Assembly (NCBI RefSeq): GCF_046105845.1
Contig: NZ_CP151004.1
DNA: 64,000 nt
Origin: Escherichia coli
Lineage (GTDB): Bacteria > Pseudomonadota > Gammaproteobacteria > Enterobacterales > Enterobacteriaceae
Direction: 5' to 3' (one strand)
The notes below the pieces were generated by a model, which made no database searches, was not told the origin of the DNA, and worked only from the letters and a program-made list of their open reading frames with translations. A program made the translations under genes and the position numbers. Positions 3,455-52,294 of this stretch are shown piece after piece; positions within the stretch are counted from its first letter, which is position 1; the number at the start of each line of letters is the position of its first letter.

Positions 3455-3560
3455 ATGCTGGATCCGGCATGAACGCCTTATCCGGCCTACAAAATAGCGC
3501 AAATTCAATATATTGCACCATCTTCCCAGGCCTGATAAGCGTAGCGCATCAGGCAGTCAT
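3455..3560. repeat. REP-type palindromic units in kdpE-pgm spacer
   Basis: ggatccggcatgaacgccttatccggcctac and caggcctgataagcgtagcgcatcaggc, typical REP consensus-like imperfect palindromes. Confidence 0.5.
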
Positions 3561-3564
3561 AAGT

Positions 3565-3596
3565 AAAAAAGGGCGATCTTCCGACCGCCCTTTTTC
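3565..3596. terminator. Bidirectional rho-independent terminator shared by convergent kdpE and pgm
   Basis: aaaaaa-GGGCG-atcttccgac-CGCCC-ttttt: GC stem flanked by A-run and T-run. Confidence 0.55.
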
Positions 3597-10875: not shown

Positions 10876-10912
10876 TGCCGGATGCGGCGTAAACGCCTCA
10901 CCCGGCCTGGTA
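10876..10912. repeat. REP element
   Basis: atGCCGGATGCGGCGTAAACGCCTCACCCGGCCTgg, REP-like. Confidence 0.5.
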
Positions 10913-12750: not shown

Positions 12751-12780
12751 GGATGCGACGCTCAAGCGTCGCATCAGGCA
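12751..12780. repeat. REP-like palindrome in glnS-nagE spacer
   Basis: GGATGCGACGCtcaaGCGTCGCATCaggca. Confidence 0.4.
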
Positions 12781-22159: not shown

Positions 22160-22262
22160 CAATGTCGAATGCGATGTTGACACGTCTTATCCTTCAAAGT
22201 CGGATGCGACGCTGACGCGTCTTATCCGACCTACAGTTGGCACGCATCCGGCAATGTTGTAA
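22160..22262. repeat. REP-type palindromic units between tRNA operon and ubiF
   Basis: gtcggatgcgacgctgacgcgtcttatccgacctac and ggcacgcatccggcaatg. Confidence 0.5.
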
Positions 22263-27659: not shown

Positions 27660-29201
27660 ATGGCTTTTGCCTCATTAATTGAACGCCAGCGCATTCGCCT
27701 GCTGCTGGCGTTATTATTCGGTGCCTGCGGAACGCTGGCCTTCTCTCCTTACGATGTCTGGCCTGCGGCGATTATTTCGCTGATGGGGCTTCAGGCGCTG
27801 ACCTTTAACCGCCGTCCACTCCAGTCTGCCGCTATTGGCTTTTGCTGGGGATTTGGCCTCTTTGGCAGCGGTATTAACTGGGTCTATGTCAGCATCGCGA
27901 CTTTTGGCGGAATGCCTGGCCCGGTTAACATCTTCCTGGTGGTGCTGCTGGCGGCGTATTTGTCGCTGTATACCGGACTGTTTGCTGGCGTGCTGTCGCG
28001 CCTGTGGCCGAAAACCACCTGGCTGCGCGTGGCGATTGCCGCCCCTGCTCTCTGGCAAGTGACCGAGTTTCTGCGCGGTTGGGTGCTGACTGGTTTCCCG
28101 TGGTTACAGTTCGGCTATAGCCAGATTGATGGCCCGTTAAAAGGGCTGGCACCAATAATGGGCGTGGAAGCCATTAACTTCCTGCTAATGATGGTTAGCG
28201 GCCTGCTGGCACTGGCGTTGGTCAAACGCAACTGGCGTCCGCTGGCGGTGGCCGTCGTGCTGTTCGCCCTTCCCTTCCCGCTGCGTTACATCCAGTGGTT
28301 TACCCCGCAACCGGAGAAAACCATTCAGGTTTCGATGGTTCAGGGCGATATTCCGCAATCACTGAAATGGGACGGAGACCAGCTTCTTAATACGCTGAAG
28401 ATTTACTACAACGCAACGGCACCGCTGATGGGCAAATCATCGTTGATTATCTGGCCGGAGTCGGCGATAACCGATCTGGAAATTAATCAGCAACCGTTCC
28501 TCAAAGCACTGGACGGTGAGTTGCGCGATAAAGGTAGCTCGCTGGTAACCGGGATTGTTGACGCGCGTCTCAATAAGCAGAACCGCTACGATACTTACAA
28601 CACCATCATCACGCTGGGGAAAGGTGCGCCGTACAGCTACGAATCAGCCGATCGCTATAACAAAAACCATCTGGTGCCGTTTGGCGAGTTTGTCCCGCTG
28701 GAGTCGATTCTGCGTCCGTTAGCGCCGTTCTTTGATCTGCCGATGTCGTCGTTCAGCCGTGGGCCATATATCCAGCCACCGCTGTCGGTAAACGGTATTG
28801 AGCTTACTGCGGCTATTTGCTACGAGATCATTCTCGGCGAGCAAGTGCGTGATAACTTCCGCCCGGATACCGATTATCTGCTGACTATCTCCAACGATGC
28901 ATGGTTTGGTAAGTCTATTGGTCCATGGCAGCACTTCCAGATGGCGCGAATGCGTGCGCTGGAGTTGGCGCGCCCGCTACTGCGTAGCACCAACAACGGC
29001 ATTACGGCGGTGATTGGTCCGCAGGGTGAGATTCAGGCGATGATCCCGCAATTCACCCGCGAGGTGTTAACCACTAACGTGACGCCGACTACCGGACTTA
29101 CACCGTACGCACGTACCGGCAACTGGCCTCTGTGGGTGCTGACGGCACTGTTTGGTTTTGCTGCTGTGCTGATGAGTCTGCGTCAGCGACGTAAACGTTG
29201 A
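27660..29201 (+). CDS. lnt: Apolipoprotein N-acyltransferase Lnt (about 512 aa)
   Basis: [37 protein letters not shown]..., multi-TM N-terminus, CN-hydrolase domain. Confidence 0.95.
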
Positions 29202-29214
29202 GGTGAATGATGCG

Positions 29215-29249
29215 CTGGCCTGCAAAATTGCATCATTTTTGCAGGCCAG
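29215..29249. repeat. Perfect 13-bp inverted repeat just downstream of lnt
   Basis: CTGGCCTGCAAAA-ttgcatca-TTTTGCAGGCCAG; no U-tract on either strand. Confidence 0.6.
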
Positions 29250-29304
29250 ATAAACCGTTAACACCGCATCCGGTATCAACAAAACATACTTTCTCATTAA
29301 GCGG

Positions 29305-29332
29305 TGGGGCGTGATTATCATGCCCCTTTTTT
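29305..29332 (+). terminator. Rho-independent terminator (plus-strand orientation) abutting the stop of the minus-strand rhomboid gene
   Basis: GGGGCgtgattatcatGCCCCtttttt. Confidence 0.55.
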
Positions 29333-29333
29333 C

Positions 29334-31211
29334 TTACGGTTCAGGGATACAAGCCACATTGCCATATTGGGGATGACGAATAATTGCCTGCGGATCAAGC
29401 GAGCGCGTCCTGTCCAGTTGGATTAACCCGTTCTTCGCCATAACAAATATTTTTCTACCATCCGCTGAAAAACGAAGGTGATTAACGTAGCTGGCAGGAT
29501 AAACGCCAATAATCTGCCCGGCATTAATATTGAGCTGGATGACATAACCTTGCAGGCCATATGACACCAACGCTAAATATTGACCGTCCGGGCTAATACC
29601 CTCAACGGAATAAACGCTCCTGCTACACCATTGCGTCATAATACTGGCTTGTTGATCCTCAGCTCTTATACGTGAAATCCCCTGGCTATCGGCAAAAATA
29701 ATCTCTCCATTTTTTGGTCGGAATCCCATCGCAGAAACGACACCACGCGCATCACCTGCGGGAAAGTCTTCTTTCTGATGCGTGATGGTATTGATGCGTA
29801 CAATGTCACCTCTGACCATACCGGGTATCAACAATGTTTTTTCATCCGGGGAAAGTGCCATAACCCAGGCACCAGGTTTATTACTCGTCCCCGTCCCGTC
29901 GTATTTCTCCAGCGGGATATCCGCCACATGCTGATAAGTCACCAGATCAATGGCTGACACACTATTACTGGTGCGATTCATCACCCAAGCTTTTGTGCCA
30001 TCACGCGAGAGGATAAGACTGTCAGGATGTGCACCGGTGGTAATCGACTGAATAATCTCCCCCGTCGCCACGTTAATGACCGATAACGCATTCGCTTCAA
30101 ATGAAGTCGCATAAAGCAACGTTTCATCCGGGCTTAGCGCCAGCGATCTGACGCCCTGATCTTTACAGCCACCACAATGTTTGACTGACTTTTCTTTCGC
30201 TATGGGGGCTGTAAAGGTATGCAGGATTTTCTTTTGTCCGAGGTCGAAAACAACAATGCTGTTGGTGTTTTCAATTGCGGCATACAACGTATTACCATCC
30301 CGACTGATCGCCATATCATGGATATCGGAAATCTCAGCGAGCAAATCACCACTGGCCTGTTCACGACTTACCGGAGCGGATAATGTTTCCCTGAGGGCGT
30401 TGCGTTCCTCCGCTAACTGCTGCTTTTTTTGCCGTCGCTCTTGTTCAATCTCCTGTGGATAAAACTCTTCACGCAGGCTTTGCCTGACTTGTAAAACTGA
30501 CTCACCCATCTGCTGCTGCGCAAGCCAGATAGCCCCGGTCAGAAGAAGACTACCCGCAACAATAATCCCGCCTTCCGTAACAAGCCGGTTTTGCCCATAT
30601 AAACGCGCACTCAGCCCCCCCATCGCGCCACCCGCAATCAGGCCGCCAATGTGGCAAGCGTTATCTATTCCTGTTTGCCGGGCACCGTACAACAGTGTCA
30701 GCGCCACCATACCCAGCAGAGGAAATACTCGCCGCTGGTTTTTATGGTGTGTGCCCGCACCTGAAGCAAGCTGTGTTGCTATCGCAGCGCCAGCTATTCC
30801 CATAATCGCCCCGGATGCCCCAACGCTGATGACTATCTGCTCACTTTCGCGTAACGCATAACAGGCACTGATTAGCCCACCAAAGACGCCGGAGAATAAC
30901 CAGATAATCAGAAGTCGCCATTTCCCCAGTATCCGCTCCGCCACTGCCCCCACCACCAGAAGTGCAAACATATTCATCAGCAAATGGGGAAAACTACTGT
31001 GCAGAAAGACACTGCTCAATAAGCGCCAGGATTCGCCCGACAACGTGAGAGAAGTAACGTTAGCACCGAGATGGATGAGTGCGGATTGATCGACTTCTTC
31101 ATAACTCATCCATTGTGCGAGGTAACAAAATATCCCAACACAGAGCGCAAAAAGGATAAGGGTTATTGCGGGTAATTGAACATTTAACGGCTTAACCGAA
31201 GATGCAGACAT
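29334..31211 (-). CDS. Rhomboid-family intramembrane serine protease (7 TM) fused via a charged linker to a C-terminal YVTN/YncE-like beta-propeller (625 aa); not a gene I recognise from E. coli K-12
   Basis: Single 625-codon ORF. N-terminal residues 1-235: rhomboid motifs WR (62-63), HxxxN (H76, N80), GASG with catalytic Ser133, ACHIGG with His187, plus seventh hydrophobic helix 216-232. Residues 240-285 charged (EEFYPQEIEQERRQKKQQLAEERNALRE). Residues 286-625: about seven repeats of [LI]S[PR]DG..[LI]...N......[IV]D-type beta-strand blades. Confidence 0.85.
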   Translation of the reverse strand: MSASSVKPLNVQLPAITLILFALCVGIFCYLAQWMSYEEVDQSALIHLGANVTSLTLSGESWRLLSSVFLHSSFPHLLMNMFALLVVGAVAERILGKWRLLIIWLFSGVFGGLISACYALRESEQIVISVGASGAIMGIAGAAIATQLASGAGTHHKNQRRVFPLLGMVALTLLYGARQTGIDNACHIGGLIAGGAMGGLSARLYGQNRLVTEGGIIVAGSLLLTGAIWLAQQQMGESVLQVRQSLREEFYPQEIEQERRQKKQQLAEERNALRETLSAPVSREQASGDLLAEISDIHDMAISRDGNTLYAAIENTNSIVVFDLGQKKILHTFTAPIAKEKSVKHCGGCKDQGVRSLALSPDETLLYATSFEANALSVINVATGEIIQSITTGAHPDSLILSRDGTKAWVMNRTSNSVSAIDLVTYQHVADIPLEKYDGTGTSNKPGAWVMALSPDEKTLLIPGMVRGDIVRINTITHQKEDFPAGDARGVVSAMGFRPKNGEIIFADSQGISRIRAEDQQASIMTQWCSRSVYSVEGISPDGQYLALVSYGLQGYVIQLNINAGQIIGVYPASYVNHLRFSADGRKIFVMAKNGLIQLDRTRSLDPQAIIRHPQYGNVACIPEP

Positions 31212-31368
31212 AAGGTGTTTCTTCCTTGAAAAGACAGGTAAAAAGCATTTTTCCCGTGTGCAGTTATCATCCCGGCAAACGTCCCATGCCGAAAAGATAA
31301 CTCTGTCCGAAATATGACTTTTTCAGCCTAAAATTACAATCGTAATTAATTCATCCCTAAGTATTTTT

Positions 31369-31384
31369 TGGCATGTAAGTTGCT
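31369..31384 (+). promoter_or_regulatory. Candidate sigma54 (-24/-12) promoter directed toward gltI
   Basis: TGGCATgtaagTTGCT: GG and GC elements at the consensus spacing of TGGCACG-N4-TTGCA. Confidence 0.4.
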
Positions 31385-31451
31385 TTATTTACTGTGTAAG
31401 CAATGAAATCAGCCGCGACGCAACCGGGTTGCACCACCACAAATCAGCGGT

Positions 31452-52233: not shown

Positions 52234-52264
52234 TCCTGTAATAATTGCTTACATCTGTCTGATA

Positions 52265-52294
52265 AAAAACCCGCTTTTTGAAGCGGGTTTTTTG
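52265..52294. terminator. Bidirectional rho-independent terminator shared by convergent lipA and tatE
   Basis: aaaaaaCCCGCTttttgAAGCGGGtttttt. Confidence 0.7.

Follow-up and report, generated by a model that had tools for sequence, protein, structure and literature searches.

What does a perfect 13-bp inverted repeat represent when it lies immediately downstream of lnt, the gene for apolipoprotein N-acyltransferase, and is followed by no T-run? The repeat was noticed in a 64,000-nucleotide stretch of Escherichia coli DNA (hereafter the window), and the original prediction, made from the letters alone, allowed for a protein-binding palindrome, an RNA-processing or stabilising hairpin at the 3′ end of lnt, or the relic boundary of an inserted segment, but missed the REP/BIME origin of the hairpin. 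Comparison with other E. coli genomes identifies the hairpin as an ordinary derivative of REP/BIME sequence; the site varies between strains, with at least four alternative versions including this one. It is very probably the tail-to-tail junction of a decayed BIME-1 relic, likely to serve as a barrier in the lnt 3′UTR in the manner of other REPs.

Genomic setting and predicted structure

The element sits in the 132-nt spacer between lnt and a convergent gene for a rhomboid protease-beta-propeller fusion (Table 1), an extragenic 3′-end position that is typical of REPs. The RefSeq annotation used was that of E. coli AST215, whose genome is 99.9% identical to the window. The TGA stop codon of lnt occupies 29199-29201 and is separated by 13 nt from the foot of the stem. 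Over a span of 35 nt (29215-29249) the sequence reads CTGGCCTGCAAAA-TTGCATCAT-TTTTGCAGGCCAG, and the arms are complementary at 13 of 13 positions, as originally described, although the loop had been typed with eight nucleotides, one T having been dropped from the actual nine. Two extra pairs are possible inside the loop.

Table 1. Features at and around the lnt 3′ flank, in window coordinates
Feature	Position	Strand	Basis or remark
lnt (apolipoprotein N-acyltransferase) CDS	27660..29201	+	Pfam LNT_N and CN_hydrolase; RefSeq annotation of AST215
Strain-variable segment, 2.2 kb	29196..31420	.	blastn of window against K-12-type genomes
z1-type REP head remnant GAATGATGCG (canonical GCCTGATGCG)	29205..29214	+	alignments; orthologous site of isolate 538
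GATGCG	29209..29214	+	pairs with CGCATC 29265-29270 in MFE and centroid folds; also found as inverted repeat
Hairpin left arm CTGGCCTGCAAAA	29215..29227	+	z1 REP tail, or z1 tail fused to part of L linker (putative)
Hairpin loop TTGCATCAT, 9 nt	29228..29236	+	with T-run, resembles y-proximal L linker end AATTTGCATGAcTTTGTAGG
Hairpin right arm TTTTGCAGGCCAG	29237..29249	+	tail and foot of y REP
Degenerate y-type REP ACCGGATGCGGTGTTAACGGTTTATCTGGCCTGCAAAA	29237..29274	-	84% identity to y consensus over 37 nt
lnt intrinsic terminator	29306..29332	+	terminator scan; 9-bp GC-rich stem 29306-29326, then TTTTTT
Rhomboid protease-beta-propeller fusion, 625 aa, convergent with lnt	29334..31211	-	ORF, Pfam, RefSeq annotation

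Perfect 13-bp inverted repeats with loops of 3-12 nt were counted in 200 first-order Markov simulations of the window, in which the mean expectation was 0.025 per 64-kb window, as against two observed; a chance origin of the hairpin was excluded on this ground. The only other such repeat in the window (52264-52293, AAAAAACCCGCTT-TTTG-AAGCGGGTTTTTT) is a classic bidirectional intrinsic terminator. The RNA form of the hairpin folds at -23.4 kcal/mol on the plus strand (z = -6.0) and at -21.9 kcal/mol on the minus strand (z = -5.0), the DNA form at -15.6 kcal/mol, and the 13-bp stem dominates the predicted folds.

The hairpin itself is not an intrinsic terminator. No T-run follows the 13-bp stem on either strand, the plus strand continuing with ATAAACCG and the minus strand with CGCATCATTC, and the terminator scan picks 29306-29332 instead. 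On both points the original prediction, which had placed the real terminator at 29305-29332, was borne out. The downstream terminator has no T-run in the minus direction.

Other candidate features of the region were considered and set aside. An Rfam scan of 28700-29800 returned no match at E <= 5. A pseudoknot between AATGATGC (29206-29213) and the loop stretch GCATCATT (29230-29237) is sterically unfit, a single nucleotide linking the strand to the base of the stem, and the same two stretches were never preferred as an alternative pairing in the folds. A 35-codon open reading frame on the plus strand (MMRWPAKLHHFCRPDKPLTPHPVSTKHTFSLSGGA, 29207-29314), preceded by a Shine-Dalgarno-like GAGGTG that overlaps the lnt stop, runs through the hairpin and REP sequence and was rejected as a gene; it is probably spurious, since the G at 29202 in the Shine-Dalgarno-like motif is T in all six other aligned hairpin alleles.

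REP composition of the element

REPs are imperfect palindromes of 30-40 nt with a conserved GTAG 5′ of the foot, and a BIME-1 consists of a z1 and a y REP in inverse orientation with a conserved long L linker between them (Ton-Hoang et al. 2012, PMC3333891). REP typing by blastn-short against the REP consensus sequences identified a degenerate y-type REP on the right side of the element, for which the aligned y consensus is GCCGGATGCGGCGTGAACGCCTTATCCGGCCTACAAAA. When the 83 nt at 29203-29285 were compared by blastn with 5426 complete E. coli genomes, the right half (29236-29283) gave matches of 83-87% at other intergenic places in nearly every genome (more than 5000 of the 5426). Three of these other-locus matches were inspected (K-12 rplY-yejK, gudD-barA and fdhE-yiiF), and all were REP/BIME sequences. 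The REP at K-12 rplY-yejK, an 85% match (TTTTTGCAGGCCAGATAAGGCGTTCACGCCGCATCTGGCA), has the GCAG tail TTTTTGCAGGCCAGATAAGG and the CCAG foot that are seen in the window. The right arm and the 25 nt beyond it could also be aligned with the y(GCAG) part of a z1-linker-y BIME of E. albertii.

The y REP is altered in both its tag and its stems. The tetranucleotide is GCAG (29241-29244) and not GTAG, a known minority state that is also found in otherwise canonical y REPs of K-12, the gudD-barA spacer and E. albertii. Five of the seven Watson-Crick pairs of the outer stem (consensus GCCGGAT/ATCCGGC) are left, the other two being a G.T and an A.C mismatch; the inner stem (consensus GGCG/CGCC) is lost, with AAACCG opposite CACCGC, and a foldable palindrome is no longer present. 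The y stretch folds poorly on the plus strand (-4.2 kcal/mol, z = +0.55, no better than shuffles), and on the minus strand another, G.U-rich hairpin is formed (29282-29255, then UUUAUCU). The 13-bp stem also sequesters the y foot.

On the left side, the flank GTGAATGATGCGC is the head of the complete z1 REP that occupies the orthologous site in isolate 538 (GAATGATGCGCGACGCTTATCAGGCCTAC), and about 10 apical nucleotides of the z1 palindrome are missing from the window element. A joint alignment gives the layout z1 head, gap, tail, short linker and y REP. The canonical z1 tail is CAGGCCTAC followed by AAAA; judged from the alignments, the left arm would be either this tail with two substitutions or the GGCC of z1 fused to the TGCAA of the L linker. 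In sequence, the loop and its T-run (AATTGCATCATTTTTGCAGG) are similar to the end of the BIME-1 L linker that adjoins y (AATTTGCATGACTTTGTAGG), and only about 17 nt (AAAATTGCATCATTTTT) lie between the tetranucleotides, a stretch that resembles this y-proximal end alone and not the long L linker. In the predicted folds the z1 head pairs with the y head (GATGCG/CGCATC), which lengthens the hairpin across a 15-nt bulge.

These features are shared in part with REPINs, or REP doublets (Bertels & Rainey, PMC3116915, PMC3337134), in which inverted REPs fold into one long hairpin: the heads (GAUGCG/CGCAUC) and the tails (13 bp) both pair in the window element, as in the fold of an E. albertii BIME. 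Unlike such doublets, the window element has an internally deleted left half, marked by the 15-nt bulge, and it is found once per genome with no evidence of mobility.

Probable descent from BIME-1 and alleles at the lnt 3′ flank

The lnt 3′ flank was found in four versions among E. coli genomes. The hairpin version of the window, truncated z1, short linker and y, is carried by 192 (megablast) to 202 (blastn) of the 5426 genomes, at one place in each, and its carriers include ST648, EPEC E2348/69 and the complete genome NZ_AP043621.1. The canonical BIME-1 version (GCCTGATGCGCTACGCTTATCAGGCCTAC, the L linker and a truncated y) is known from the example strains ATCC 8739, H105, EC6563 and isolate 538, its query sequence matching many other BIMEs as well. 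The collapsed version (GCCTGATG-T-ATCCGGCA), found in about 1650 genomes, has only the two outer heads left. The K-12-type version, without the rhomboid gene and present in about 2190 genomes, has its own 12-bp hairpin followed by a y REP. RNA of the collapsed version is almost unstructured (-8.4 kcal/mol, z = -0.35), whereas the other three versions place strong hairpins within 15 nt of the stop codon.

The window element contains a z1 and a y REP in inverse orientation and occurs once at the locus, as expected of a BIME-1, and the four example strains of the canonical version have z1, L linker and truncated y directly after lnt, at the orthologous site. It is filed as a BIME-1 relic by descent, on the basis of this orthology with canonical BIME-1 alleles and of sequence similarity. 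It resembles the BIME-1 of Bachellier/Gilson and Ton-Hoang et al. 2012 (PMC3333891) in its inverse, tail-to-tail REP halves, with the z1 head on the left and the y REP on the right, in its single copy at the locus and in its extragenic place between convergent genes. It differs in lacking the z1 apex and most of the approximately 34-nt L linker, including the central palindromic part, in a y REP that has GCAG and no inner stem, and in a tail-tail stem that dominates over the REP palindromes.

Deletions of the apex of z1 and of the greater part of the L linker would have brought the two REP tails close together, giving the perfect 13-bp stem; the y REP no longer has a palindrome of its own or a GTAG tag. 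When the element is aligned globally with a reconstructed full BIME-1, four gaps are needed on the left side, and the several deletions that this requires are compatible with more than one exact path. Copy number differs between the two forms: a canonical BIME-1 query finds a median of 15 places per genome, and the hairpin variant is single-copy, with about two related places per genome at E <= 0.01. Multiple identical copies genome-wide, as in a known REP/MITE family, had been named as an outcome that would refute the original prediction, and this outcome is seen in a weak sense; the right half belongs to a multi-copy REP family, but the 83-nt hairpin-plus-REP allele (29203-29285) has one matching place per carrier genome.

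Binding and cleavage by the REP-associated tyrosine transposase (RAYT/TnpA-REP) require GTAG and the stem mismatch (PMC3333891). With its GCAG tag and without the mismatched stem, the element is probably no longer a TnpA-REP substrate, and such a loss of mobility fits the single copy per genome. The element would, on the same sequence features, not be filed as an active REP.

Loss of the linker also bears on the protein-binding option. BIMEs are reported to bind IHF (at the L linker), gyrase and Pol I (PMC3333891; PMC2817692), and a double-stranded palindrome bound by a transcription factor, or by gyrase or IHF as at BIMEs, might be imagined here. This reading is extremely improbable: the L linker lacks its central palindromic portion, where the IHF site of BIME-1 is located, the hairpin lies between the 3′ ends of two genes, with no promoter-like site in 28900-29700, and the element is single-copy with arms that vary among strains. 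The protein-binding palindrome of the original prediction thus found no support.

The inserted segment offers another possible origin. In genomes of the K-12 type, 154 bp with a different hairpin and y REP replace the 2.2-kb segment, and homology of the window to these genomes stops at 29195 and restarts at 31421. The hairpin therefore lies 20 nt inside the left edge of the segment, as a relic boundary might, and REP clusters are known sites of rearrangement. It is nevertheless very unlikely that the hairpin marks the insertion or deletion of the rhomboid segment as a scar or boundary, for instance as a site of recombination or as a mobile element's terminal repeat. Near the right boundary (31421) neither a REP nor a counterpart of the repeat is present, the site exists in three different versions among rhomboid-positive genomes, which makes the repeat polymorphism independent of the segment, and K-12-type genomes have a REP of their own at the same place. 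Of the relic-boundary proposal, then, the proximity to the left edge stands, and a right-edge partner and a link between repeat and segment do not. Nor is the hairpin conserved in rhomboid-lacking genomes, where the K-12-type hairpin is found instead.

Several side observations concern the same region. About 3234 of the 5426 E. coli genomes carry the rhomboid-beta-propeller gene, which K-12 and O157 lack. The C-terminus of Lnt (29183-29201) differs between alleles: the window has LRQRRKR and K-12 has LRQRRK, many rhomboid-positive strains have LRARKR, and LRARQR occurs in E400634, which places the recombination boundary in the last lnt codons. The K-12-type arrangement (3512-3576 in genome L003), a 12-bp hairpin that lacks a U-run and lies about 12 nt past the lnt stop with a y-type REP after it, parallels that of the window in unrelated sequence. 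In the same K-12-derived genome an IS5 copy (L003 3865-4845) lies between lnt and gltI, and it is absent from the otherwise similar genome L007.

Perfection of the stem

Seven sequences of the hairpin version were aligned, and three arm positions were found to vary. The change 29247 C>T (ST648 and HS-02) leaves a G.U pair, 29249 G>A (HS-02) gives a terminal mismatch, and 29221 T>A (E400634) gives an internal A.A mismatch; no compensatory change was present for any of the three positions among the seven sequences. Variable sites number 3 of 26 in the arms, 2 of 9 in the loop, 3 of 13 in the spacer and 3 of 29 in the rest of the y REP, a sample too small for the lower proportion in the arms to carry meaning, and these counts do not support a constraint on pairing.

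Both arms share the same two non-consensus bases (CTGGCCTGC / GCAGGCCAG), in comparison with the canonical z1 tail given above and the canonical y tail GTAGGCCGG. A z1-linker-y BIME of E. albertii has the same GCAG y tail with a canonical z1 tail, and its tails reach only 11/13 complementarity. The shared bases would fit either copying of one arm from the other, by template switching in a quasi-palindrome, or selection. Quasi-palindrome correction by intramolecular template switching has reportedly been described by Ripley in 1982 and, in E. coli, by the Lovett laboratory. The two shared bases are what would be expected if one arm had been copied from the other, but the parallel is purely inferential here and the same pattern would be given by selection or by an unsampled REP subfamily.

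A scan for the strict form GGCCTRCAAAA-N3-15-TTTTGYAGGCC in 100,044 species-representative genomes found 29 loci, only two of which are enterobacterial REP junctions (in E. albertii and Leclercia); the other 27 lie in unrelated organisms and are likely chance matches or terminators. The idea that a tight tail-tail hairpin is a generic feature of BIMEs was dropped, given its strict form in two enterobacterial genomes only. On these counts the tight perfect junction is unusual and its parts are ordinary.

Could the hairpin instead be a selected cis-regulatory RNA of lnt, a 3′UTR stabiliser or a brake on translation termination, to which REP ancestry is incidental? Three of the four site versions place a strong hairpin no more than 15 nt from the lnt stop; in the K-12 type the 12-bp hairpin and the REP together amount to -29 kcal/mol in total, and in the BIME-1 type the z1 REP begins 3-4 nt after the stop. 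The two non-consensus bases common to both arms, set against the incomplete complementarity of the E. albertii analogue, point the same way. The commonest rhomboid-positive version, however, is the essentially unstructured collapsed one, and none of the three arm changes is compensated, so that selection for such an element is regarded as unlikely. It is similarly doubtful that the perfection of the stem is non-accidental, one arm having been copied or selected, and that about 4% of E. coli thereby acquire a hairpin that measurably lowers or stabilises Lnt expression.

Possible function

REPs have been described as context-dependent 3′UTR elements that attenuate transcription, protect upstream mRNA and take on terminator or stabiliser roles; about 60% of them lie between convergent genes, and their positions differ among strains (bioRxiv 10.64898/2026.03.23.713779). 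Since REP elements are reported to act in this manner, a role in stabilising or processing RNA at the 3′ end of lnt is the most plausible of the three options first proposed.

The hairpin would be transcribed within the lnt 3′UTR, upstream of the true terminator, and an RNA hairpin of about -23 kcal/mol would be expected to slow 3′-to-5′ exonucleases, modestly and in an allele-specific manner. With 13 nt between its foot and the stop codon, the hairpin may mildly disturb termination of lnt translation as well. Our best guess, which draws on the predicted folds and the REP literature, is that the hairpin impedes 3′ exonucleases modestly in strains with this allele and possibly affects translation termination. 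Any such role would be dispensable, given that about 30% of all genomes have a version without such a structure. From the opposite side, antisense rhomboid transcripts would meet the y-derived hairpin (29282-29255) first and the 13-bp stem after it; read-through of this kind is probable because there is no U-tract terminator in the rhomboid direction.

According to Liang, Rudd & Deutscher 2015, in the account given by PMC12306157, ribosomes stall and translation falls where a REP begins within 15 nt of a stop codon. The window element is comparable to the stop-proximal REPs of that account in having a stable REP-derived hairpin 13 nt after the lnt stop, and it differs from them, as they are portrayed there, in that its hairpin is the junction of two REP tails and not a REP palindrome.

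The locus is one more at which E. coli strains differ through the gain, truncation and collapse of REP/BIME elements. It also illustrates how a perfect palindrome left by a decaying BIME can mimic a stand-alone regulatory hairpin, which calls for caution in scans based on sequence only. If the hairpin allele altered Lnt expression, it would constitute natural REP-based tuning of an essential gene with promoter and coding sequence unchanged, and four natural alleles are available for comparison.

Further REP material is present elsewhere in the window. A canonical BIME-1 at 3460-3554 consists of a y REP, an L linker and a z1 REP; its z1 tail reads CCAGG and not GTAGG, so the tetranucleotide is variable in BIMEs elsewhere as well. 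More REP-like matches were obtained by blastn-short at 10877-10908 (y), 12752-12779 (z2) and 22203-22235 (z2).
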